This document shows, piece after piece, positions 952 through 53,126 of a DNA stretch of 64,000 nt (the stretch's first letter is position 1; every line of letters begins with the position of its first letter). Made by a program: the position numbers and the translations under genes. Below the pieces are notes generated by a model. It saw only the letters and a program-made list of their open reading frames with translations. It had not been told where the DNA came from and did not search any database. Where the stretch lies: the NCBI RefSeq assembly GCF_055900595.2, contig NZ_CM148325.1, one strand, 5' to 3'.

Positions 952-1251
952 TTAACCAGTCTGTTTCCCTGATTGGGGTGACGTTGTTTCGACGTGCCCA
1001 CAGTGTGCGAGAGCCGGGGCTATTTGCCCGTGTTCTGGGTCGATGCGGTCATACATAAACCAATTCTGATACTTATGAAAACGGGGGTGACCAAATATCT
1101 TAATTGCAGATTCCAATGTCATCTTAGATTTGTCACGCTCATAGCCGTGATAGGTTGTGTAATTAAGCCCTACTAAATCAACAAATTGCTGTTTTGTTAG
1201 CCTTTCCGAATCTCGCATGATCGCTAACTTTTCACCTTGAGTATTTGACAT
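952..1251 (-). CDS. C: Immunity repressor, P2 C-like
   Basis: 99 aa, MSNTQGEKLAIMRDSERLTKQQFVDLVG...QIAPALAHCGHVETTSPQSGKQTG; resembles recalled P2 C repressor; sits between int and the early operon as in P2. Confidence 0.8.
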   Translation of the reverse strand: MSNTQGEKLAIMRDSERLTKQQFVDLVGLNYTTYHGYERDKSKMTLESAIKIFGHPRFHKYQNWFMYDRIDPEHGQIAPALAHCGHVETTSPQSGKQTG

Positions 1252-2023: not shown

Positions 2024-2239
2024 ATGACCCCAAGACAAGTATTAATCTCCAAAAATGATGACATATTGCACTTTCAAGTAAAATACATAATAGCCACAAC
2101 AAAGGTAGGAACATCAATCTATATACACTATCAGAATTTCTATCTGGAGAGAGTCTTCGAAACGGAAGGAGAAGCCCAGAAGTTTTTGATACACATAAAA
2201 GATTGCATAGAAGGAAAAATAAGACCAGGGGATCAATAA
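2024..2239 (+). CDS. Hypothetical protein in an AT-rich insert (71 aa)
   Basis: ORF in a stretch of markedly lower GC (by eye) than the flanking phage DNA; no recognised family. Confidence 0.35.
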   Translation: MTPRQVLISKNDDILHFQVKYIIATTKVGTSIYIHYQNFYLERVFETEGEAQKFLIHIKDCIEGKIRPGDQ

Positions 2240-2547
2240 TGCGAAAACATTATTCACAACCATATATCCGTAACAGTGCGCCACGCAGCAATAACCGCTG
2301 GAGCCTGCGCGAAACACACGCAACACCAGGCGGTCACGTTGTAAAACAAACTGGGGAACACACCTGGCTGATTGAGCAGGCTGGACTCGTGATCCACAGA
2401 TGCAACCGCAATCCGTTTACCGGAAACCGCATCTTTGCACTGAGCAGCGGCGACAACCAGTTCGGGCAGGATTTCACGCTACACGAAGCCCTGCGAACTG
2501 CCGACCGCTTAATCGCGGGGCGCAGCTTTCAGCACCCGGATTACTAA
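2239..2547 (+). CDS. Hypothetical early-operon protein (about 102 aa)
   Basis: ORF track 2203..2547 uses a TTG start; an in-frame ATG at 2239 is a more likely start. No recognised family. Confidence 0.4.
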   Translation: MRKHYSQPYIRNSAPRSNNRWSLRETHATPGGHVVKQTGEHTWLIEQAGLVIHRCNRNPFTGNRIFALSSGDNQFGQDFTLHEALRTADRLIAGRSFQHPDY

Positions 2548-2590
2548 AGAAAAGTCGGCTTAATAAGCCCTGAGCCAGTCTTAATAAGAC

Positions 2591-2848
2591 ATGAGAGGCG
2601 ATAAGATGAAAAGAGCCTACAAAGAAATCGCTAACGACATACTTCAGAATTATCACCTAACCCTTGCAAACGAGGGTGTCGCCTATGATGAGCAATCGTT
2701 CCGCGCAATGCAGGGTGGGATTCTTGGGCTGTATATCGCCGCCACAGCCAGCGGCGACCTCGAAGCGCTGGCAGAATTAAAGGTTATCTATCCGAAAGAA
2801 CTTGGCGAAGACCTGATTAAACCCTATCTCATTGAGGAGCTGGCATGA
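2591..2848 (+). CDS. Hypothetical early-operon protein (85 aa; alternative start at 2606)
   Basis: ORF track; GAGAGG Shine-Dalgarno before the ATG at 2606. Confidence 0.45.
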   Translation: MRGDKMKRAYKEIANDILQNYHLTLANEGVAYDEQSFRAMQGGILGLYIAATASGDLEALAELKVIYPKELGEDLIKPYLIEELA

Positions 2849-2970
2849 ATATTCTTATCTCGTGGTTAATTCTCATCCTCGCCATTATTTGCGCGGTGGG
2901 AATCATGCGAATTATTAACGGCATTAAAACCATCGAATCATTATTTACTGGCGACAAGCGCCATAAATAA
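2845..2970 (+). CDS. Small single-pass membrane peptide (41 aa)
   Basis: ATGA start/stop overlap with the upstream ORF; GAGGAG Shine-Dalgarno 5 nt upstream; MNILISWLILILAIICAVGIMRII... is strongly hydrophobic. Below the ORF track size cutoff. Confidence 0.45.
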   Translation: MNILISWLILILAIICAVGIMRIINGIKTIESLFTGDKRHK

Positions 2971-3050
2971 ATAACCGGAAATTACCAGAAAGCAAGAAAA
3001 CATCCGCAACGGCGGAGGGATTCCCTTACGCCTGAAATAAGGAGCAGCGA

Positions 3051-3266
3051 ATGAGTAAACCACTAACCAGCATTGAGCGAAAAATTGTTTTTATGAATGT
3101 GGCAGGCGTGCAGTTCGAAGTGGATAAGCAGGTCATCGTCTCCGAAACGAGATGCCCGGCAGCAGGTGAGCAATGCACCTACCTGACACTGGCAGACGGC
3201 ACGCAAATAACCGCCGTCACCGACACCATTCGCGAGCTTGTGATTATCAGAGGGGTTAAACGATGA
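3051..3266 (+). CDS. Hypothetical protein (71 aa)
   Basis: ORF track; AGGAG Shine-Dalgarno upstream (aaggagcagcgaATG). Confidence 0.5.
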   Translation: MSKPLTSIERKIVFMNVAGVQFEVDKQVIVSETRCPAAGEQCTYLTLADGTQITAVTDTIRELVIIRGVKR

Positions 3267-3475
3267 CCAGCAAATACACCACCAACGCACGCAAGCCAGG
3301 CAAGGAGGCACGTCATCACATTGCCGTTCTGCGCAATCTCATCATGTGCGAAATCGACGACTTTGTGGCGGGACTGGGCCAGCCGGGCGAGCCAGCAACA
3401 CCGGGCGAAATACACAAAGAACTACGCCGCCGCATAGAAAGCGCGGTGGATTACGTCATGAACCCGAACGACTGA
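3263..3475 (+). CDS. Hypothetical protein (70 aa)
   Basis: ORF track; ATGA overlap with the upstream ORF. Confidence 0.45.
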   Translation: MTSKYTTNARKPGKEARHHIAVLRNLIMCEIDDFVAGLGQPGEPATPGEIHKELRRRIESAVDYVMNPND

Positions 3476-3515
3476 CCAGAACGCGAGCGCGCGCCGGATG
3501 ACGCACGCATAACGC

Positions 3516-4001
3516 TTAGCGGGAAGCGCCAACCGTAAGGCTGGCAATGATTTTTTCGGAGAGTGAGAGAGATTCGCGATGATTAAGACCAAGAGCAGCA
3601 CAAGCTTTATTGCGCGCCGGGTTGTCCATGCATTCAAGCACCGGAGAGTCCTGCTTCTCAATTTCCACCAGTCGCGCCAGCAACACCTCCGTGCTGAGAC
3701 CGTCGCTTTCAGTAATCAGGACGTTATAGCGATGAGCCTGTTCTTTTGCAGCCTGAGCGCGTCGCCCAAATTTCCAGGCGATATTGCAGCCACTAAGCAC
3801 AGCCACGATACCACCCAGCAACCAACTGAAATTGCTGTCTGCAAACACAGTAGCCCCAGACGTAAGGATGACAGCATTAATCACCGTATCCATACGGCGG
3901 TTAAACACCTCCGAAATATGTTCAAGCCAGTAACTGTTCCAGAGACGAAACATGACCTCGTGTCGCCGTTCGGCATGATTTTCAGTTGGTTGTCTGTTCA
4001 T
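3516..4001 (-). CDS. Two-transmembrane protein (161 aa), opposite strand to the early operon; candidate superinfection-exclusion or abortive-infection effector
   Basis: ATG at 3999-4001 with GAGGAGGG Shine-Dalgarno upstream; two hydrophobic segments (VINAVILTSGATVFA and FSWLLGGIVAVLSGCNIAW) followed by a charged, helix-prone C-terminus. No confident family match. Confidence 0.55.
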   Translation of the reverse strand: MNRQPTENHAERRHEVMFRLWNSYWLEHISEVFNRRMDTVINAVILTSGATVFADSNFSWLLGGIVAVLSGCNIAWKFGRRAQAAKEQAHRYNVLITESDGLSTEVLLARLVEIEKQDSPVLECMDNPARNKACAALGLNHRESLSLSEKIIASLTVGASR

Positions 4002-4244
4002 TGCGGTTTAACCCTCCTCATCATCTCGCCCCTGCCCTTTTTCAGGCGCGGGAGCCGGTTGCCGTGGCACATGAAATTTATCGCTATCAGACATTTATTT
4101 TTTCCCGTGTGTTGTTGAACAAACTGCCCGCACAGTTTTGACGGAACGGCGGGCGCTTCAAGCGTAACACACCCTTCTTTTCCGGTTGAAGGCGAAAAAA
4201 ACCGGACAGCTACCCGACACAAACCAGACCAGCGGAGAACTGCC

Positions 4245-4799
4245 ATGTACGCACTTAAACCTATGGGGATACCAGGCAAAGCCCCGGCGCATGTGAAAGC
4301 CTGGACACAGCAGGAAGATGATTTGCTGATCACCCTGTACCCGCAGCACACAGCACGAGATATCGCCGGACGTCTGGGGCGCAGCTACGAAGGAGTTCGC
4401 GGCCGCATTTCTCGTCTGCGTGAACAGGGCAGGATTGGCATCAAGCAGCAAAGACTAAGCGATGAGATGATCGCCACGCTCATCAGGAACCGCCACACCA
4501 GGTCCCTCAAGGAACTGGCACACATGGCGAAAGTTTCGACACGCACGGTAACCAACCGATTGAGGGCGCTGGGCTACAGCCTGATCAAATGCGGAGAACT
4601 GCATAAAAACGCCGTCTACAGCGACTGCATCGTTGAGATTATCAACCAGTTACGCGACGAGCAGGGCCTGACGTTCAGGGAAATCGCGCAGCGCCTTAGC
4701 CACGAACTACAGCCGAACCCCACCCCGGCACTTGCTCGCCATCTCTACTGGCGCCGCACAGCAGCCGACGCCGTACTCCGCGAACTGTTACCAGATTGA
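4245..4799 (+). CDS. DNA-binding protein with repeated helix-turn-helix-like segments (184 aa), early/replication operon
   Basis: ORF track; three HTH-like segments (TARDIAGRLGRSYEGVRGRISRLR, SLKELAHMAKVSTRTVTNRLRALG, TFREIAQRLSHE). Confidence 0.5.
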   Translation: MYALKPMGIPGKAPAHVKAWTQQEDDLLITLYPQHTARDIAGRLGRSYEGVRGRISRLREQGRIGIKQQRLSDEMIATLIRNRHTRSLKELAHMAKVSTRTVTNRLRALGYSLIKCGELHKNAVYSDCIVEIINQLRDEQGLTFREIAQRLSHELQPNPTPALARHLYWRRTAADAVLRELLPD

Positions 4800-5119
4800 G
4801 CAATCACCATGTACACACAAAAAAACCGCTTGCAACAACAAACCGGAACAGGGTACGCTTCCCCCGCACCTCATAAAACGGGTGTCGGGTTTCGCAGCCT
4901 GCTGACTAGCAAAGCGCACAACCGCGCCAGCGGTTTTTTTGTGCGTACTGTATTGCCACGTCTTTTTCGCACACGAATTATGGCGGGGCGTACGGGGCCG
5001 ACTTCGGTCGGGCCGGGTTCTTTGCTAGCCGGTACTGCGAACCTCGTACGTCTCGCCACCCACAGTTTCGCAGCTCTGGATGGTGAGTTTTTAAAACTTA
5101 CTAGCAAAGAGGCCACACC
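4800..5119 (+). promoter_or_regulatory. Structured intergenic region with repeats and hairpins
   Basis: CTAGCAAAG occurs three times: direct at about 4905 and 5100, inverted (CTTTGCTAG) at about 5022. Also a CCGAC-TTCG-GTCGG hairpin with a UUCG-type loop at about 5008-5021 and a terminator-like CCGCGCCAGCGG plus T7 at about 4922-4940. Confidence 0.4.
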
Positions 5120-5338
5120 ATGGCAAACCGCAAACAGCGCCGCGCTACTGCGGAGCATCACCACGTCCGCGCCCAAATCGACAAACGCCTTTTCCGCGCA
5201 TCACGCGTTGCACGCATCATGCACATCAACATGCTGCATGAACGCAGAGGGGCACTACCGAACACCTATATCGCCTCCGTTTTCAGCTATCTGGCGGACG
5301 ATCTCGCCGAGCTGCAACACCTCATTAACCAGCACTGA
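5120..5338 (+). CDS. Hypothetical protein (72 aa)
   Basis: ORF track; AAAGAGG Shine-Dalgarno 8 nt upstream of the ATG. Confidence 0.5.
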   Translation: MANRKQRRATAEHHHVRAQIDKRLFRASRVARIMHINMLHERRGALPNTYIASVFSYLADDLAELQHLINQH

Positions 5339-5410
5339 TAAACATCCCGAAGCCATCCTGCGCCCGTTCGCGGGAGGCTTCCACACATCTGTAGTCGGGA
5401 GGATTGCGCC

Positions 5411-5779
5411 ATGATTCTGGCTGACGATTTTCTGGAGTACCTGAACAACACCGAGCGCGACCTGTACGCGCGCGTTCTCACCCGTTACGAGAAATACAAA
5501 CTTTCACTGCCAGAGCATCAACTCCGCGAAGGCGATATCGACATTGAAGGGCGCTACATCGTCAGGCGCCGCATAGCGGGCTACGGCATCTGGCGTGTCA
5601 CCGGACTTGAGCATTCATTGCTGACCATCTGCCAGAGTCCGTCCGGCGTGATAACGGAGATCGTCGCCGATAGTCTGCGACTCACCCATCACAGCGCCAC
5701 CCCGGAAGAAACGCTGGCAGAAACCCAGCGTCTGTGTCGCGTCATTGCCAACGCCGCCCTCCGCGCAGACAGGAGGTAA
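5411..5779 (+). CDS. Hypothetical protein (122 aa), immediately upstream of A
   Basis: ORF track; GGGAGG Shine-Dalgarno upstream. Confidence 0.5.
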   Translation: MILADDFLEYLNNTERDLYARVLTRYEKYKLSLPEHQLREGDIDIEGRYIVRRRIAGYGIWRVTGLEHSLLTICQSPSGVITEIVADSLRLTHHSATPEETLAETQRLCRVIANAALRADRR

Positions 5780-5782
5780 GCG

Positions 5783-8272
5783 ATGGAGTTCGTCAGAGAC
5801 TGGCAAAAACCGCGCCCCGCTATCGGGCGCGAAGGCTTACCCGTACCTGAAACCGCACTGGATACCATCCTGAAGTGTTACCGCGCAGACGAAGAGCGCG
5901 CACTGCACGCTGAAGAGCAGGGTCATCCGCTTGCGGGCACAACCATCGGTAACGCGATCGACAAGTGGGAAGGCGCACAGGAGCGCCAGGAAGAGGCCAT
6001 CACGCTCACACAGGAAGCGAGAAGACACCCGCCCACCCTTATTGAGGAAACCCTCAAAGAGCTGGACACCCTGCCCAAGTGGTTGAGGCTGCCGCTGATT
6101 AAGCACCTGAACTTTTTAAGGCGCAAACAGGAGGACGAACAACAGAAAGGCAAGCGCGGCAAGGACACCCGCAAATATGAGCGCTTCCTGAAAAACGGCA
6201 TCCCCGCACGTCTTCGCCGTATTCGTGAGATTAACGCTCGCTTTGCACCGTTAAGTTTTCAGGCCGCTGCCATGCGCGAGAGTCTGGAAGAACTGATCAC
6301 ACTGCCGAACCTGAGCCGTGAACGCATCCAGAAAATAGCCGTACTGCTTGCCAGCGCCGTTAAAATGCATCTTGCCGACGCAATGGACAAGGCCCGCGAA
6401 ATAACAGGGAACGACAAAGACGACAACCTGAACAACTGGCTGATTGCCTACCAGTATATTGGTCGCCGTGTCCTGAAGCTGGGGATCACCCCACCATACT
6501 GGAGCGCCCTTGAACTCCGCCCCGACCGCAGAAGCCCCCCGGACGTGACACTGGTTCCGGGCGCTGTTTTGCGCCTGAACGACGCCGAATGGTGGAATAA
6601 AAAACTTCGCCAGATGCACGACGTCTGGCGTGAGGAACTTTTACGTGCAGCGGGCCTTGTATCCCGCCAGACCTCCGTTTATGTGAGCCGTGAAGCGCTG
6701 GCAGACTTCCGCGAAAAACAGGCCCGTACCCGCGATTTTCTCAAAGCGCACGACGTGGAGAACGAAGACGGCGAACGCATCAGTCTGGAAGATATCTACT
6801 ACGCCAGTACATCCAACCCGCATAACCGCCGCAACGAGATGATGGCGTGCGTTAAGGGAATGGAGCTTATCGCACAGGAACGCGGCGACGTGGCCTTCTT
6901 CGTCACGGTCACAGCCCCGTCTCGTTTTCACAGCGTCACCGACGCAGGCACGCTGAACCCGAAATACAAAGGCGCAACCGTAAAGGACGCCAGCGACTAT
7001 CTGGTTTATAACTTCTTCGCCTCCGCCCGCAAACTCATCAAAAAAGAGAAGCGGGGCTGGTACGGCATTCGCACCGTGGAGCCTCACCACGACGGCACGC
7101 CCCACTGGCACATGCTGGTATTCACAAGCCCTGAGAACGAAGAGCGCATCACGGAAATCATGTGCAATGCCGCCATTCGCGAAGACCGGGCAGAGCTGGG
7201 CGACGACATCACCCCGCGCTTCAAGTGCGAGAAGATAGATCCCGAAAAAGGCACGCCAACCAGCTACATCGCCACCTACATAGGCAAAGGCATTGACGCC
7301 GCTGCATTCGGCGACACGGATCCAAAAACAGGTAAACCGCCCGTTGACCACGAAAGCGGAAAACCTATGGCGGACACCGTGGAAAACGCCGTCGCCTGGG
7401 CGCGCCTGCATCGCATTCGCCAGTTCCAGTTCTTTGGCCTCCCTTCCCGTCAGGTGTGGCGTGAGTTCCGCCGCCTTGCCGGACAAATGGCACGCAACCC
7501 GAAGGGGCCGCAGGCACTGACCAACCCCAAAGCCGACGCCCTCCTTGTTGCAGCCGATACGGGGTGTTTTGCCAGCTACATCATGCATCAGGGCGGTGTG
7601 CTCATTCCCCGTAGTGAATATCTGGCCCGCACAGCCTACGTCACCGCAGAAGAGCCGAACAATTACAGCGAATTCCCCGAGCGCATTTACGGTATCCGCA
7701 TGCCGGAACTGGGGGAGGACTTCACGTTATGCACCCACCCGGAAGAGTGGAAAATCGTCAGAAAGGAACCGGAACCAGACAACCGCACGGGCGAGGGTTT
7801 TGACCTTCAGGGCGGCCCCGCCGCCCCTTGGACTCGTGGCAATAACTGTCACCCTGACGAAAAAACAACCAACAACAGCACACAAACAGAACAGTCAGAG
7901 TGGGCAAAACTGCCCCCCTTACCCCCATCGTCGGACGGTTTTGTGAGCTGGTTTAAGTCGCTTAAGAGGCCGGACAGGAAAAAACTACAAAGATTGCTCA
8001 AAAAACGCACCGAAGAGAGTCGCCAGAACGCCAGCGGCGGCACCGACACACCCACCGACACCATTAACCTGGGCGTTGTGCTGCCGGAACTGCCGGAAAT
8101 CGTGCAAGTCCGCCGCGATCTGGAAGCGCTGGGCGCGGACTTCCCCGAAGCAATGGCCCATTCCGTCTTTATGGGTGCCCGCGTTCGTCTGGGTGACGGT
8201 CGCACCGTTCACCGCGACGAGCAGACCGGGCGCATCACCGTCACCAGTCTGCAACCGGAGGCGAAACCATGA
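5783..8272 (+). CDS. A: Replication initiation endonuclease, P2 gpA family
   Basis: 829-aa ORF at the position of P2 gene A (between the early genes and the portal); large rolling-circle-type replication protein. Confidence 0.75.
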   Translation: MEFVRDWQKPRPAIGREGLPVPETALDTILKCYRADEERALHAEEQGHPLAGTTIGNAIDKWEGAQERQEEAITLTQEARRHPPTLIEETLKELDTLPKWLRLPLIKHLNFLRRKQEDEQQKGKRGKDTRKYERFLKNGIPARLRRIREINARFAPLSFQAAAMRESLEELITLPNLSRERIQKIAVLLASAVKMHLADAMDKAREITGNDKDDNLNNWLIAYQYIGRRVLKLGITPPYWSALELRPDRRSPPDVTLVPGAVLRLNDAEWWNKKLRQMHDVWREELLRAAGLVSRQTSVYVSREALADFREKQARTRDFLKAHDVENEDGERISLEDIYYASTSNPHNRRNEMMACVKGMELIAQERGDVAFFVTVTAPSRFHSVTDAGTLNPKYKGATVKDASDYLVYNFFASARKLIKKEKRGWYGIRTVEPHHDGTPHWHMLVFTSPENEERITEIMCNAAIREDRAELGDDITPRFKCEKIDPEKGTPTSYIATYIGKGIDAAAFGDTDPKTGKPPVDHESGKPMADTVENAVAWARLHRIRQFQFFGLPSRQVWREFRRLAGQMARNPKGPQALTNPKADALLVAADTGCFASYIMHQGGVLIPRSEYLARTAYVTAEEPNNYSEFPERIYGIRMPELGEDFTLCTHPEEWKIVRKEPEPDNRTGEGFDLQGGPAAPWTRGNNCHPDEKTTNNSTQTEQSEWAKLPPLPPSSDGFVSWFKSLKRPDRKKLQRLLKKRTEESRQNASGGTDTPTDTINLGVVLPELPEIVQVRRDLEALGADFPEAMAHSVFMGARVRLGDGRTVHRDEQTGRITVTSLQPEAKP

Positions 8273-8679
8273 ACCGTTATCATTGTGTACTGCCGCGCCA
8301 CTACTTCGGTCAGATTATGCGCTCGCGTATTCCGGCGGTCACGCTGCGAAACCTGAGCACGGTACCGCAGCCGGGCGATGAGCTGGAAATCGCCGTAGCA
8401 GGCCCTGACCGTTCAGCCAGCTGCGTGACCGCCGACGTGCTGAACGCCGTGCCCGTAGGTGGTGACTGGCTGGTTGCCATCCGCTTCCGCCAAGACCCGT
8501 TCGCACCTGAACCGCTCACCCCCGCAGGCCGCATCATGCAGAACTGGCGGGATGAACGCGCGAAGGCGAACTGCGAAAAACTGATTAACAGGATTGCCAC
8601 GACAAACCGACATGCCGCGCTGGCGCGCCGGATATACCCCGCAAAATCAACACAACCAACAGGAGTAAAAGGCCCATGA
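8269..8679 (+). CDS. Hypothetical protein (136 aa), translationally coupled to A
   Basis: ATGA overlap with the A stop; no recognised family. Confidence 0.5.
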   Translation: MNRYHCVLPRHYFGQIMRSRIPAVTLRNLSTVPQPGDELEIAVAGPDRSASCVTADVLNAVPVGGDWLVAIRFRQDPFAPEPLTPAGRIMQNWRDERAKANCEKLINRIATTNRHAALARRIYPAKSTQPTGVKGP

Positions 8680-8804
8680 AAAGAATCGCCGGAACTGACT
8701 ACCAGGAGCTGCTTAAAGCGGTGGAAAACTACCGTTCAGCGCTGGTGTGGTGTGAGATTAAGCCCTGTGACCCGGGAGCAGTTAAGGATTGCAACCGGCG
8801 CGTG
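8676..8804 (+). CDS. Small hypothetical protein (about 42 aa), translationally coupled
   Basis: ATGA overlap with the upstream ORF stop; AGGAG Shine-Dalgarno. Below ORF track cutoff; low confidence. Confidence 0.3.
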
Positions 8805-9614: not shown

Positions 9615-10001
9615 ATGAAAGCCCGTATCGGGATCATCCCGGAAAAAGCCCTGCGCCAGCACCTGATTGATATTGCCAGAGGGAAGCGAAAACCACAGCC
9701 CGACGAGCCAAAGGTATGGTTTTCATCCATCAATGCGGCAGGCCAGACGCTGAGCAATGAAAATATCGCCCTTCTGCGTCTTATGAATGAGGAGAAGCCG
9801 CAGACCATGACCGCACTTGCGGAGTTATCCGGCAGAAAACTGAGCAACCTGTCTGTAACCCTGAAAATGCTGAGCAGCTACGGTTTTGTCAGTCTGGAAA
9901 AGAAAGGGAATACTGTACACCCGAAAGCACTTTTTACCGATTTTGAAATCATCGTTGATCCGTCCGTGGGTTCAGTACATCGCGCCACCGCCCGGCCCTG
10001 A
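9615..10001 (+). CDS. Small winged-HTH-like DNA-binding protein (128 aa)
   Basis: ORF track; AAGAGGA Shine-Dalgarno; central segment MTALAELSGRKLSNLSVTLKMLSSYGFVSL resembles a wHTH recognition region. Confidence 0.5.
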   Translation: MKARIGIIPEKALRQHLIDIARGKRKPQPDEPKVWFSSINAAGQTLSNENIALLRLMNEEKPQTMTALAELSGRKLSNLSVTLKMLSSYGFVSLEKKGNTVHPKALFTDFEIIVDPSVGSVHRATARP

Positions 10002-11910: not shown

Positions 11911-12966
11911 TCAGGATATGGGCCGGGTGTCTAACAGTGCGTAAGGGTTAAAACGGATCACCTCTTCGCCCAGCCAGTCGTTGACGTGTTTCATTGCTTC
12001 CATGACGGGCATCAGTTCGTTAATGGCAAACACACGGGCTGCCTTCTCCACATCCCCGAATGACCCCTTCTCACCCGGCATGGCCCCCATCAGCTGAGGT
12101 GGCACGCGGTGCACAGCCAGCACGTCATCACGCGATGCGGCCTTGACGTTCATGAACTCATCCTTTGCGGTGATTTGCTGAAACGGCAAAATCTGTACGC
12201 CATCCTTACCACCTCCCGCCGCGTGGATGAGCAGATTTTTAAACGCCCCGCCACCACGCGCGCTTTGCAGTGTTTCCCGCAGTTTTTCCATGCTTTCACG
12301 GTCAACCTGCGCCGCACCGATGTAGACAATACAGCCCGCGTGTGAGCCGTTATCGTAGTAGAGCTTGCGGAAGATATCGGCGGAATGTGACAGGCTGGCA
12401 GACAGCAGGCCGCCCAGGTAATCCGGCATCCCGTAAATCTCCTGGTTGATATCAGGATTCATCAGGTGGCATATCGTCCCCTCACGAAAGCGGTACTCTT
12501 CCTGTCCTTCCTGTATATACCACCATGATTTCATATCGCTGCCACGTCGCATGTATTTCGCCAGCGCCCGGCGCAGGGCCAGCGGTTCGCCAAGCATGTT
12601 GCGCCGCAGCTCAAGACAGGCATTACCGAACACAAACCAGTCCATCGCCACCCCGGCGAACTCCTGGCGGGACAGCAGAGGATGTGGAATATAGCAGCCC
12701 AGCAGCACATTACGTTTGAAGCTGAGCGCCGACTGGTGCCAGGACGTCTGGCGGGCAGCCCGTGCCAGTCCGTACCAGTCAACGGGCGTTTCAAACCACC
12801 GCCCGTTGTCGGCGCAGTACATGCTGTCCAGCAGGTCGGCCCCTGACAGCCGGTAAGGTCCTTCAAACGTGAAGGCACTCAGTGTCGGGTCGCTTCGCAG
12901 GGAATCCGCAAGGCTGCCCTGCGCTGCGCGGGCGTTCGTACGTCGTTGTTTATTTTTTCTGCTCAT
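11911..12966 (-). CDS. Q: Portal protein, P2 gpQ family
   Basis: 351-aa ORF divergent from the capsid operon and adjacent to the terminase large subunit, as in P2. Confidence 0.8.
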   Translation of the reverse strand: MSRKNKQRRTNARAAQGSLADSLRSDPTLSAFTFEGPYRLSGADLLDSMYCADNGRWFETPVDWYGLARAARQTSWHQSALSFKRNVLLGCYIPHPLLSRQEFAGVAMDWFVFGNACLELRRNMLGEPLALRRALAKYMRRGSDMKSWWYIQEGQEEYRFREGTICHLMNPDINQEIYGMPDYLGGLLSASLSHSADIFRKLYYDNGSHAGCIVYIGAAQVDRESMEKLRETLQSARGGGAFKNLLIHAAGGGKDGVQILPFQQITAKDEFMNVKAASRDDVLAVHRVPPQLMGAMPGEKGSFGDVEKAARVFAINELMPVMEAMKHVNDWLGEEVIRFNPYALLDTRPIS

Positions 12967-37165: not shown

Positions 37166-37960
37166 ATGGATCTGTTGTACCGGGTAAAAACGCTTTGGGC
37201 CGCGCTGTGCGGTAATCATTACACCTGGCCTGCTATCGATATCTCTCTTCCCGACCATCGCCATTTTCATCTAATCGGCAGTATTCATATGGGTAGCCAC
37301 GATATGGCTCCCCTGCCCACCCGTTTGCTCAAAAAGCTCAAAAACGCCGATGCGCTGATCGTCGAGGCGGATGTTTCTACCAGCGATACGCCTTTTGCCA
37401 ATTTGCCTGCCTGCGAGGCGCTGGAAGAGCGCATTAGCGAGGAGCAACTCCAAAACCTGCAGCACATTAGCCAGGAGATGGGCATTTCTCCGTCGCTCTT
37501 TTCTACCCAACCGCTGTGGCAAATCGCGATGGTTCTTCAGGCAACGCAAGCGCAAAAACTGGGGCTGCGGGCAGAATATGGTATCGATTACCAGCTATTG
37601 CAGGTGGCGAAGCAACAACATAAACCCGTGATTGAACTGGAAGGGGCAGAAAACCAGATTGCCATGTTGCTCCAGCTCCCTGACAAAGGACTGGCGCTGC
37701 TGGACGATACGCTGACCCACTGGCACACCAACGCTCGTTTGCTGCAACAAATGATGAGTTGGTGGCTGAATGCACCACCGCAAAATAATGAAATAACGCT
37801 GCCCAATACGTTCAGTCAGTCGCTGTACGATGTGTTGATGCATCAGCGAAATCTCGCCTGGCGGGACAAATTACGCGCTATGCCGCCGGGGCGCTATGTG
37901 GTCGCGGTCGGTGCACTACACCTGTATGGAGAAGGGAATTTGCCACAAATGTTGCGCTAA
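37166..37960 (+). CDS. ybaP: TraB-family protein YbaP
   Basis: 264 aa; conserved position next to copA and ybaK. Confidence 0.8.
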   Translation: MDLLYRVKTLWAALCGNHYTWPAIDISLPDHRHFHLIGSIHMGSHDMAPLPTRLLKKLKNADALIVEADVSTSDTPFANLPACEALEERISEEQLQNLQHISQEMGISPSLFSTQPLWQIAMVLQATQAQKLGLRAEYGIDYQLLQVAKQQHKPVIELEGAENQIAMLLQLPDKGLALLDDTLTHWHTNARLLQQMMSWWLNAPPQNNEITLPNTFSQSLYDVLMHQRNLAWRDKLRAMPPGRYVVAVGALHLYGEGNLPQMLR

Positions 37961-38163
37961 AAAAATGGCCAATATCGCTATTGGCCCGTCAAAGAGGAAT
38001 TTCATTTTTTTATTATTATGCCGTCACTTTAAGCGACGGTGTAACTCGATTGTCGCTCAATCTCACCATCCTGCCAATACTCTTAGGCAAGATGACTCTT
38101 TTTTTTGGACCGCCATCAGGCGTATGCTTGCTTCGTTTTTTTGTTTAAGGCAGGAAAATTACC

Positions 38164-51194: not shown

Positions 51195-53126
51195 TCAAAT
51201 GGGGCGGATACTTTCTTCATCCAGCTCCGCATCGAAGAATCGACGCAGGGTCTGAATATTATTATCCGCAATAATGGACTCGCGCGCCTGCGCAAGTTTT
51301 TCTTCGTATATCGCCTGACGCCATTCCAGCGGCGTGCGCACCGCGGGATTATCATCTTCAACGATAGTCAGTTCAACCGTTGAACCTTTTAACGTGCTCA
51401 ACGCTTCAGCCAGTTTTTGCTGTGCACCGCGGTTGTTTAAATGCCGCTGAGAGGAGCGCAAATGCAGACATACTGCGTTGTCGCTCTCCTCTTTCCAAGC
51501 ATTTAACGCCACCTGTTCGACCAGTTTTGGTAGCGAAAGTTGGCTCACCTGTGCCGCCCAAGGATCGCGGTCAATGGCTTCTGCCGCCAGCTTTGCCGCC
51601 AGTTCCGGCGTTTTTTCATGTTCCAGCGCTTTTTTCAGCGCCTTCGGCGTGGCGACCACCTCTTTTTGCTGCATCACTGGAGTGGTAGCCTTCCAGCGAT
51701 ACGCTTCTTTTTTGGCTGGTGCTTTTTCCAGCGCCGATGGCCCCGGACGCGCCTGAACGCGATCGGTGACCGAAGCCAGTCTTTCCAGCGCAGCGTTATT
51801 CACCGGCCGCGCGCGGGTAGCGGCTGCCGGTTCACTCTTTTTTGCTTTGGTTGCTCCCTGTGCGCGCTGCAGTTGTTGGCGCGCTGCCAGCACCTGGCTG
51901 GTGGTTTCTGAGAGCGGTACAGTCGGTGCCTGCTGCGGTGCTGATTGCGGTTGCGGCGGCACCTGGGTTGGCGTCATTACTGCCGTTGGCGCGACGGGCG
52001 CAAAAGACTGGCGTGGCACTTCTGGCTCAGGCAGCGGCATACGCGGATGAAACGCCAGTGCGCGCAACAGTGTCATCTCAACGCCCATGCGGCGGTCCGG
52101 CGCATACGGTAATTCTTTGCGACCAATCAACAGCGTTTGATAGTAAAGCTGAATATCCGTCGGCGGTATGGTGCGCGCCAGTTCACGCATCCGCAGCTCG
52201 ATGGCGGCCATGTCGTTGCCCAGCGCAGCAGGGGAAAGTTGCACCATTGCAATGCGGTGCAACAGGCCGAGCATTTCTACCAGCAACGCTTCCCACTCAA
52301 TACCACGAGCGGCGGCTTCATTAATCAGCGACATTACACGCTCGCCGTTGGCTTCAACCATCGCTTCAACCAGCGACAGCGCCTGATCGTCGTCAAGCGT
52401 ACCCAGCATCGCACTGACCGCCTGGGTTGAAACCTGGCCGTCACCGCTGGCAATTGCCTGGTCGGTTAAACTTAGGGCATCTCGCAAGCTGCCTTCAGCG
52501 GCGCGCGCCAGCAGTTGCAGCGCCCGCGGCTCGTGAGCGATATGTTCTTCGTTGAGGATGTGCTCAAGCTGATGGCGAATTTGCTCGACATCCAGCGCCT
52601 TGAGATGAAATTGCAGGCAGCGTGACAAAATCGTCACCGGCAATTTCTGCGGATCGGTCGTCGCCAGCAGAAACTTGACGTGCTCCGGCGGTTCTTCAAG
52701 GGTTTTTAACAGTGCGTTAAAGCTGTGGCGCGACAGCATATGCACTTCGTCGATCAGATAAACTTTAAAACGACCACGCGCTGGCGCGTACTGGACGTTA
52801 TCCAGCAGGTCGCGGGTATCTTCGACTTTGGTGCGCGAGGCGGCGTCGATTTCAATCAGATCGACAAAGCGCCCCTGCTCAATTTCACGACAGTTATCGC
52901 ACACGCCGCACGGCGTCGCGGTAATGCCGGTTTCGCAGTTTAGCCCCTTCGCCAGCAGTCGGGCGATAGAGGTTTTTCCGACGCCACGGGTGCCGGAAAA
53001 AAGATAAGCATGATGAATACGCCCTAACGACAAGCCGTTCGCCAGTGCGGTCAGCACATGTTCCTGGCCGACGACGTCAGCAAAGGTTTGTGGGCGCCAT
53101 TTTCGGGCTAAGACCTGATAACTCAT
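51195..53126 (-). CDS. dnaX: DNA polymerase III tau/gamma subunits
   Basis: 643 aa; AAA+ motifs (GTRGVGKTS). Confidence 0.95.
   Translation of the reverse strand: MSYQVLARKWRPQTFADVVGQEHVLTALANGLSLGRIHHAYLFSGTRGVGKTSIARLLAKGLNCETGITATPCGVCDNCREIEQGRFVDLIEIDAASRTKVEDTRDLLDNVQYAPARGRFKVYLIDEVHMLSRHSFNALLKTLEEPPEHVKFLLATTDPQKLPVTILSRCLQFHLKALDVEQIRHQLEHILNEEHIAHEPRALQLLARAAEGSLRDALSLTDQAIASGDGQVSTQAVSAMLGTLDDDQALSLVEAMVEANGERVMSLINEAAARGIEWEALLVEMLGLLHRIAMVQLSPAALGNDMAAIELRMRELARTIPPTDIQLYYQTLLIGRKELPYAPDRRMGVEMTLLRALAFHPRMPLPEPEVPRQSFAPVAPTAVMTPTQVPPQPQSAPQQAPTVPLSETTSQVLAARQQLQRAQGATKAKKSEPAAATRARPVNNAALERLASVTDRVQARPGPSALEKAPAKKEAYRWKATTPVMQQKEVVATPKALKKALEHEKTPELAAKLAAEAIDRDPWAAQVSQLSLPKLVEQVALNAWKEESDNAVCLHLRSSQRHLNNRGAQQKLAEALSTLKGSTVELTIVEDDNPAVRTPLEWRQAIYEEKLAQARESIIADNNIQTLRRFFDAELDEESIRPI
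51837..51843 (-). other. dnaX: dnaX programmed -1 frameshift slippery site (A AAA AAG)
   Basis: Minus-strand mRNA reads GCA AAA AAG AGU GAA, followed by a GC-rich stem-loop, as in the known dnaX gamma-subunit recoding site. Confidence 0.8.

Follow-up and report, generated by a model that had tools for sequence, protein, structure and literature searches.

The 64,000-nucleotide stretch of contig NZ_CM148325.1 analysed here (the window) contains a gap of 320 bp between the stop codon of a multi-helix-turn-helix (HTH) gene at 4799 and the next start codon, an ATG at 5120. We interpret this gap, with a probability of about 0.82, as an IsrK-C4 antisense RNA immunity cassette of the P1 immI / P4 CI type, located in the early operon of a prophage. 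The cassette consists of a short IsrK-type RNA, a C4 antisense RNA and two short sequence elements, a and b. C4 carries the complementary copies of these elements (a′ and b′), and the target copies are found upstream in the IsrK-type RNA (a1 and b1) and downstream in the leader of the mRNA (a2 and b2). The downstream copy of b overlaps the ribosome binding site of a gene that encodes a homologue of epsilon, the helper derepression protein of P4. This gene is the first of an operon that leads to a replication gene.

An initial annotation of the gap had pointed to a repeat in three copies, two direct and one inverted, to a terminator-like hairpin and to a CCGAC-UUCG-GUCGG hairpin, all of which are present as placed. 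What had escaped it is that the UUCG hairpin and the inverted repeat copy both lie inside one structure that is closed by a 17-bp stem, and that a second element is present in three copies as well. Its suggestion that the region is a riboregulator or a small RNA gene is borne out by Rfam. Both an IsrK-type and a C4 RNA were found in the Rfam scan that had been proposed as a check, each as a full-length match above the gathering score.

The C4 and IsrK-type RNAs

The C4 antisense RNA gene (4976-5063, plus strand) is recognized by the Rfam model RF01695 with 82.8 bits, against a gathering score of 45, and covers model positions 1-87 of 87. By comparison with the annotated 77-nt C4 of P1, the mature RNA is predicted to span about 4982-5060 (79 nt). 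In its fold, the closing stem encloses two hairpins. The first is CCGAC-UUCG-GUCGG (4998-5011, plus strand). The second (5012-5033, plus strand) has the stem GCCGG/CCGGU and a 12-nt loop that carries b′, CUUUGCUAG. The folding energy is -47.6 kcal/mol (z = -4.6), a stability reached by none of 200 shuffled sequences.

Relatives were collected by scanning viral contigs with a pattern for the C4 core in which four stem positions per side were left free. This resulted in 120 loci, 70 of which are unique and have the C4 architecture. Compensatory double changes were observed in 11 of the 20 C4 pairs in an alignment of 58 distinct C4 sequences. In the stem of the UUCG hairpin four pairs are variable in these sequences, with 23-29 double changes each and not one broken pair. 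Conservation of the paired positions in related phages, which had been named as a check on the predicted structures, is thus found.

The IsrK-type short RNA, which is of the P4 seqA type, lies at 4866-4940 (plus strand) and matches Rfam RF01394 over the full model length with 63.2 bits, the gathering score being 50. It is composed of hairpin 1, a second hairpin (hairpin 2) whose loop carries a1, an unpaired stretch with b1, and an intrinsic terminator. Among the relatives, hairpin 1 shows compensatory changes. The terminator (4920-4942, plus strand) has a 6-bp G+C-rich stem at 4920-4935 that is followed by a run of seven T. A hairpin with a T-run between b1 and C4 is kept in 47 of 51 related loci, with stem sequences that differ.

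A putative sigma-70 promoter for the module is situated at 4830-4859 (plus strand), with TTGCAA (4830-4835) as -35 and TACGCT (4854-4859) as -10 hexamer, separated by an 18-nt spacer. The predicted transcription start is near 4866. The motif TTG-N16-19-TAnnnT occurs 5-9 nt 5′ of IsrK hairpin 1 in 50 of 57 unique related loci, versus 7 of 1140 control places. In position, this putative promoter corresponds to P1c4 of P1.

The a and b specificity elements

The repeat CTAGCAAAG is present in exactly three copies in the 64-kb window, at 4906-4914 (plus strand), 5020-5028 (minus strand) and 5101-5109 (plus strand). By chance 0.26 copies are expected, and three copies were reached in 0 of 100 shuffles. 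The first copy, b1 (CUAGCAAAG, 4906-4914, plus strand), is complementary to the loop of C4 hairpin 2, with a duplex energy of -14.3 kcal/mol. The inverted copy is b′ itself (5020-5028). The third copy is the target b2 (CUAGCAAAGA, 5101-5110, plus strand), of which the duplex with b′ has an energy of -14.6 kcal/mol. b2 overlaps the Shine–Dalgarno sequence GAGG at 5109-5112, 7 nt 5′ of the ATG at 5120. Its three positions, with b1 in an unpaired stretch of the IsrK-type RNA, b′ in the loop of C4 and b2 at the Shine–Dalgarno sequence, make the repeat the 'b' element of the P1 scheme.

The second three-copy element consists of TTCGCAG at 4891-4897 and 5067-5073 and its complement CTGCGAA at 5035-5041. 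In the RNA, a1 (UUCGCAG, 4891-4897, plus strand) occupies the loop of IsrK hairpin 2, and a′ (CUGCGAA, 5035-5041, plus strand) is found in the unpaired part of C4 that separates hairpin 2 from the closing stem; their duplex has an energy of -12.0 kcal/mol. The target a2 (UUCGCAG, 5067-5073, plus strand) is located in the mRNA leader and forms a duplex of -10.5 kcal/mol. The order of the elements, a1-b1 ... b′-a′ ... a2-b2, is the one needed for antiparallel RNA pairing.

The long-range pairing that had been suggested earlier for the repeat is supported, and it extends to the second element: both behave as antisense and target partners and covary three ways across the relatives. Over the 70 unique loci, a complement of at least 7 nt to the locus's own b′ is found upstream in 73% and downstream in 86%, and to its own a′ in 96% both upstream and downstream. 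When the loops are swapped between loci as a control, complementarity drops to only 6-13%. This is found over a considerable variety of sequences, with at least 25 different b′ loops and about 20 a′ sequences. The cognate duplex of the window has an energy of -25.1 kcal/mol, compared with a mean of -15.5 kcal/mol for non-cognate partners within the P88-like class. The b′ of the window is absent from the other fetched loci, except for near-identical prophages.

The combinations in which the elements occur are informative on their exchange. One b′ (UUUGGUUG) was found together with three different a′ sequences, CUGCGAA, GUUCCAA and UGUGGAA (loci L003, L018, L113, L121 and L068, among others), and identical a′ sequences occur in P88-like, lambdoid and P4-like cassettes. 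Judging from these combinations, the a and b elements reassort independently. Since all three copies of an element change together each time, every swap takes at least two exchanges, which points to frequent recombination between the cassettes of different mobile elements.

The controlled gene and the operon downstream

The first gene after the cassette (5120-5338, plus strand) encodes a protein of 72 amino acids that is homologous to P4 epsilon (BLASTP, 30% identity over 66 amino acids, E = 1e-8). Differences between relatives in this open reading frame (ORF) number 4605, 4403 and 8284 at the first, second and third codon position, respectively, and this third-position excess identifies it as a real gene. 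In the relatives, the first ORF starts 138-142 nt past the ATG of C4, immediately after b2. There is no match of the epsilon-like gene to the Icd families of NCBIfam and Pfam, and a search of the family against solved structures returned just noise-level histone matches. The presumed target of the epsilon-like protein is the immunity repressor of the prophage itself, encoded at 952-1251 (minus strand). This repressor is of the P2 C type and is 52% identical to P2 C (E = 8e-36).

The epsilon-like gene is followed by orf122 (5411-5779, plus strand; PHROG 3237), a gene of unknown function, and by replication gene A (5783-8272, plus strand), which is the last known gene under the module. Gene A encodes a rolling-circle initiator of the P2 A type (Pfam Phage_GPA, E = 5e-102) that is 32% identical to P2 A. 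Control over entry into the replication genes, as had been proposed from the sequence, agrees with this operon, as it ends in gene A.

Proposed mode of action

In the lysogen, the module promoter near 4830-4859 is expected to be active. Some of the transcripts would end at 4942, which would give an RNA of ~75 nt that carries a1 and b1. C4-type RNAs of the P1/P4 type are released by RNase P processing, and the read-through transcripts in the window would likewise yield C4, probably through an RNase P cut at the junction between AAUUAU and G, and by trimming of the 3′ end, as in P1. Elements b′ and a′ of C4 could then pair with b2 and a2 of the mRNA leader. Because b2 overlaps the Shine–Dalgarno sequence of the epsilon-like gene, this sequence would be covered by C4 and translation of the gene would be blocked. 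The untranslated transcript would probably be terminated next, so that the epsilon-like protein, orf122 and A would not be made from the module promoter in the lysogen. The short RNA, of which a1 and b1 would bind the same C4 elements, probably tunes or titrates C4, as IsrK does in Gifsy-1. Transcripts from the upstream early promoter would include the ATG at 4809, at which a long frame across the module begins (see below). By translating this frame over the entire cassette, ribosomes would probably release lytic expression of gene A from control by C4, in the manner of P4 eta.

A conserved frame across the cassette

An ORF of 201 codons (4809-5414, plus strand), comparable to P4 eta and called 'Ash family' by annotators, passes through the entire module. 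It begins 21 nt 5′ of the -35 hexamer, crosses the IsrK-type RNA, C4 and the epsilon-like gene, the latter in the +1 frame, and ends in an ATGA on the start codon of orf122. The initial annotation had considered this ORF as well as ORF 4871-5176 on the minus strand to be spurious. That judgement stands for the minus-strand ORF, which was rejected as a gene: it has no family match, and a frame free of stops over the module exists on the minus strand in only 34 of the 70 loci. It probably does not stand for ORF 4809-5414 with regard to translation, as judged from the conservation of the frame, even though its peptide is unconstrained.

A scan for the epsilon-like gene with one genome per species resulted in 3 loci, and viral contigs were used for the wider test of the open frame. 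In these contigs, the long frame is open in 38 of 38 unique loci with an epsilon-like gene, through both RNAs and through the whole of that gene. In most of the 38 loci its ATG is located 302-317 nt 5′ of the epsilon ATG, which places it upstream of the module promoter. The stop codon lies in an ATGA on the start codon of the next gene in 34 of the 38, even where that next gene is a different one. The +1 frame of neighbouring genes contains 3-14 stops per 100 codons, against 0 for the epsilon-like gene. With the protein and the codons it uses kept fixed for each sequence, the +1 frame would be open by chance with a probability of 0.05-0.65. Multiplied over nine clusters (<85% identity), these probabilities give 1e-7, a value that overstates independence, as the clusters are related.

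The peptide itself appears to be free of constraint. Locus L120 has a 2-nt insertion in the b′ loop and 1 additional nt about 50 nt upstream, and locus L064 has changes of +1, -1, +1 and +2 nt. As these indels sum to three bases in both loci, the long ORF stays open even though the segment is read in another frame. Much of it is thus read in a frame that differs from that of the other relatives, for which reason the sequence of the peptide cannot matter. The C4 segment carries no codon-position signal (entropy 0.83, 0.82 and 0.73), and where the long ORF and the epsilon-like gene overlap, it is the frame of the latter that is constrained. BLASTP detected no similarity between the long ORF of the window and that of P4. 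Taken on these comparisons, the peptide of ORF 4809-5414 is under no amino-acid constraint, and it is the open frame that is conserved.

The Pfam family Phage_ASH (PF10554) scores 21.7 bits on the ORF of the window, which is below the cut-off of 26; relatives score 27-41 bits and P4 82 bits. The match is limited to the stretch that encodes a1/b1, IsrK, C4 and a2/b2, namely amino acids 16-107 in the window (4854-5129). In P4, it comprises amino acids 37-161 (nt 8330-8704 of the P4 locus), spans the full model length and covers the a1b1, isrK and C4 matches. The Phage_ASH family signal seems to be, in large part, a translated shadow of conserved RNA genes.

A tentative explanation, for which the odds are slightly short of even, is that the frame acts as a 'ribosome conduit', selected for being translated and not for its peptide. 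Ribosomes that start at ATG 4809 of early-operon transcripts would then cross the terminator, C4, the masked ribosome binding site and the epsilon-like gene, and would hand over to orf122 at the ATGA junction.

Comparison with known systems

An 'IsrK-C4 immunity system' has been described by Barquist et al. in P4, P1, P7, N15 and lambdoid prophages (PMC3632133). The immI region of P1 and P7 contains the promoters P1c4 and P2c4, a1, b1, the c4 RNA, a2, b2, icd and ant1/ant2, and the order and spacing of its RNA elements are as found here. In both P1 and the window, a is 7 nt and b is 8-10 nt long, C4 follows b1 at 66 nt, and b2 ends 9-10 nt before the first ATG. In both cases C4 begins right after AAUUAU and ends in GCCACC. 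The operon under control leads in P1, and presumably also in the window, to a protein that opposes the main repressor. The C4 family scores are 68.8 bits for P1 and 82.8 bits for the window. The two systems differ in their first controlled gene, which is a P4 epsilon homologue in the window and icd in P1, and in the continuation of the operon to replication gene A or to ant, respectively. Moreover, the upstream RNA of the window is a full IsrK (63 bits), whereas P1 reaches only 35 bits. P1 lacks a long pass-through ORF in the frame of the C4 ATG and, unlike in P1, no C1-type operator is known for the cassette of the window.

The P4 immunity region, with PLE, seqA, the CI RNA, seqC, kil/eta, epsilon, orf151 and alpha, gives matches to isrK (60.8 bits) and C4 (74.9 bits) in the same order as in the window. 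Both operons hold an epsilon-type derepression protein and end in a replication gene. The long ORF of P4 counts 214 codons from its first ATG, starts upstream of the module promoter, crosses isrK and C4, and has a C-terminal part of 65 codons. This fits eta and kil, with 197 and 65 codons, respectively. Eta is reportedly translated only from the upstream late promoter and is said to make that transcription insensitive to immunity. In P4, kil is the first controlled gene and is in frame with the long ORF, with epsilon coming after it; the window lacks kil and has its epsilon-like gene overprinted, in the +1 frame. The replication gene encodes a P2 A-type nickase in the window and the alpha primase-helicase in P4. 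In addition, the carrier in the window is a complete helper-type phage of the P2 family, while P4 is a satellite, and the a and b sequences differ.

The layout is also similar to that of isrK, orf45 (STnc1160) and anrP in Gifsy-1, where a terminated IsrK is followed by a C4-like RNA of ~80 nt and by an anti-repressor-like gene. The ~80-nt RNA of Gifsy-1 is processed from the IsrK read-through transcript and IsrK acts in trans (PMC4825925). The Gifsy-1 orf45, which starts at the 5′ AUG of C4, is translated and coupled to the next gene, and Hfq binding and trans-activation of the read-through mRNA by IsrK are known only for Gifsy-1 (PMC4825925). Gifsy-1 is lambdoid, and its orf45 is short and ends at anrP, in contrast to the long ORF of the window. 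Its downstream effect works via the antiterminator AntQ, and the published model stresses activation by IsrK over repression by C4. Lambdoid relatives share ~70% DNA identity with window positions 4863-5113. The P4-like and lambdoid relatives have their controlled gene in the frame of this type of ORF (in the lambdoid ones, that of the C4 AUG), while in the P88-like class it is out of frame and overprinted. The cassette of the window thus sets itself apart by its helper-type carrier, the epsilon homologue as first controlled gene, the out-of-frame pass-through ORF and its a/b specificity.

Counterarguments and alternative explanations

Several observations weigh against the interpretation as a P1/P4-type immunity cassette. 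The RNA ends, the processing, the repression and the termination proposed here, as well as the translation of the long frame and the anti-repressor activity of the epsilon-like protein, are carried over from homologous systems. The IsrK segment by itself folds no better than shuffled sequences (z = -0.08). The c4-a1b1 motif (Rfam RF03163) scores 22.3 bits at 4853-4905, under its gathering score of 46.7. The isrK model, which overlaps it, is the better fit, and the a1 and b1 elements themselves are present. The epsilon-like protein reaches 26.9 bits on Pfam PF25738, 0.1 bit short of the cut-off of 27, and the family is matched by 8 of 8 aligned relatives of the protein (E <= 0.01). The -10 hexamer TACGCT is weak, and a generic promoter scan did not report the site at 4830-4859. 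The sole site from that scan, TTGCCA-17-AATTAT at 4953-4981, is kept in P88-like relatives. It is not taken for the C4 promoter, as its -10 hexamer coincides with the conserved AAUUAU leader directly in front of the mature 5′ end of C4 in P1, and a start 7 nt past AATTAT would cut into the closing stem of C4. This AATTAT may be a processing signal and not a promoter. Finally, the minimum-energy fold of the whole read-through RNA (4866-5135; -106.9 kcal/mol, z = -4.4) pairs a1 and b1 with a′ and b′ in cis, dissolves the C4 cloverleaf and leaves b2 free.

This cis fold is central to a different view of the same cassette, in which it mainly works as an induction switch of the Gifsy-1 type. The mRNA folded in cis would be inactive, the short RNA accumulated under stress would open the fold or titrate C4, and the epsilon-like protein would then inactivate the C repressor. 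Folded in cis, 4866-5135 gains about 18 kcal/mol over its modules folded separately, and this cis fold resembles the inactive 'structure A' of the Gifsy-1 transcript, in which IsrK activates the anti-repressor-like gene and is needed for induction (PMC4825925). The resemblance of the window repressor to P2 C, the known target of P4 epsilon, is in line with such a switch. P2 is classically non-inducible. P88, however, was recovered following mitomycin C treatment (PMC5285337). Against a switch, neither a LexA box nor another signal linked to stress is found close to the module promoter, and the Shine–Dalgarno sequence and b2 are unpaired in the predicted cis fold, so that this fold alone would not silence the epsilon-like gene. 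We regard such a switch as quite conceivable, if somewhat doubtful as the main function; it is compatible with the immunity function and both may hold. It is rather unlikely that C4 acts in the P4-like manner, in which its pairing with the nascent transcript at a1/b1 and a2/b2 would directly terminate transcription, with the block of the ribosome binding site being of minor importance. P4 does share the isrK and C4 matches with epsilon downstream, its CI RNA is mentioned in a passage of PMC4825925 as pairing with seqA and seqC and thereby causing termination, and an upstream target copy and a terminator that are kept in 47 of 51 loci are not needed for a pure translation block. On the other hand, b2 overlaps the Shine–Dalgarno sequence in the window, and in almost all relatives the AGA/GGA of the ribosome binding site lies opposite the conserved 5′ portion of the b′ loop (UUCU/UUCC), which fits occlusion in the style of P1.

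That the region is chiefly protein-coding, with ORF 4809-5414 as a functional 'Ash family' regulator and the RNA features as secondary, is very improbable. The frame that is open in 38 of 38 relatives, the conserved upstream ATG, the ATGA junction in 34 of 38, the Phage_ASH matches of relatives above the cut-off and the records that annotate a transcriptional regulator or an ash family protein would all suit a protein. They are countered by the C4 segment without codon-position signal, the constraint that follows the epsilon frame in the overlap, the two relatives in which compensated indels shift much of the segment into another frame, the lack of BLASTP similarity to the P4 long ORF and the restriction of Phage_ASH to the RNA-encoding stretch. 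Besides, the variation tracks RNA pairing. Hardly any credence is left for the repeats as DNA operators of the multi-HTH protein (4245-4799), which is encoded directly upstream of the gap, or of another repressor. The 9-mer does occur in three copies next to that gene, but the elements always keep the strand and order for RNA pairing, they are located in a hairpin loop and in the ribosome binding site, and two unrelated elements, a and b, covary in parallel. Moreover, the upstream HTH gene is not conserved with the module, which leaves the HTH binding sites that had been suggested for the repeats without support. Two other candidates were rejected as well. A transfer RNA (tRNA) or transfer-messenger RNA as explanation of the structured region was dropped, as ARAGORN found none in the window. 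SOS control of the module was discarded for want of a LexA box nearby: no LexA-type CTGT-N8-ACAG is found in its vicinity, and over the whole window such matches are about as numerous as chance would give. A perfect CTGT-N8-ACAG core, which resembles a LexA box, is found in the early region at 3835-3850, within the overlapping ORFs 3516-4001 (minus strand) and 3579-4118 (plus strand).

Prophage and host context

The element that carries the cassette is a P88-like prophage (Xuanwuvirus) of the P2 family in Escherichia coli. E. coli chromosomes match the dnaX region of the window with 100% identity. Markers of the host chromosome outside the prophage are the DnaX frameshift element (51798-51862, minus strand, 94.6 bits) and the small RNA sroB (37959-38042, minus strand, 82.1 bits). 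The module region is ~80% identical to P88-like phages (genus Xuanwuvirus, Peduoviridae), in which the gene order is int, C, cox, early genes, the RNA module, a 'derepression protein', a hypothetical gene, the replication endonuclease and parM. Homology with most Xuanwuvirus phages begins at window position 4808. The gene 5′ of the module differs among relatives; it is annotated as a lipoprotein or protease in P88 and encodes a protein of 99 amino acids in P884B11.

The module is carried by 1137 of 5426 complete E. coli genomes, or about one fifth. The exact variant of the window was found in three chicken isolates, where the prophage adjoins glsA. In the RefSeq annotation, the RNA region is either blank or labelled as an 'ash family' pseudogene, an incomplete 'ash family protein'. 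Neither C4 nor isrK was found between int and A of P2. IsrK, C4 and an epsilon-like gene are linked in genomes of Trabulsiella and Edwardsiella as well, and also in divergent viral contigs. One viral contig (L180) contains two tandem IsrK-C4 cassettes, at 3653-3844 and 4332-4523, and an epsilon-like gene starts after each (matches at 3900 and 4576).

Elsewhere in the prophage, a small cargo region lies between gene A and the portal gene (Pfam Phage_portal), with window features at 9615-10001 and 11911-12966 (minus strand), and includes an HVO_A0114-type winged-HTH protein. For the same stretch, the annotation of a near-identical prophage in E. coli CM2 (99.8% identical) lists DUF6516, a regulator and a RelE-family toxin pair. 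Two P88-like contigs contain, close to their ends, several STnc100 small RNA copies in tandem together with tRNA genes (2082-4341, minus strand, in L194; 9925-10047 in L180). These clusters probably mark the integration site.

Biological significance

The IsrK-C4 cassette accounts for a conserved and unannotated gap shared by about one fifth of the complete E. coli genomes. It indicates that in P88-like phages of the P2 family an epsilon-type anti-repressor homologue and gene A are preceded by the RNA immunity logic known from P1 and P4, whereas P2 itself lacks the cassette. For protein annotation, it flags Phage_ASH as a Pfam family of which the signal coincides with RNA genes. What might come as a surprise to specialists is limited to the conserved frame, unconstrained in sequence, over the cassette and the epsilon-like gene. 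If the conduit explanation is true, lytic expression of gene A would be immune to the antisense RNA of the phage itself, and the frame would be an out-of-frame, overprinting version of P4 eta that is kept open via compensated frameshifts. Finally, the cassette provides a concrete and testable path by which prophages may be induced, and by which helper-type prophages, P4-like satellites and lambdoid prophages with the same or different a and b specificity elements may show cross-talk or hetero-immunity.

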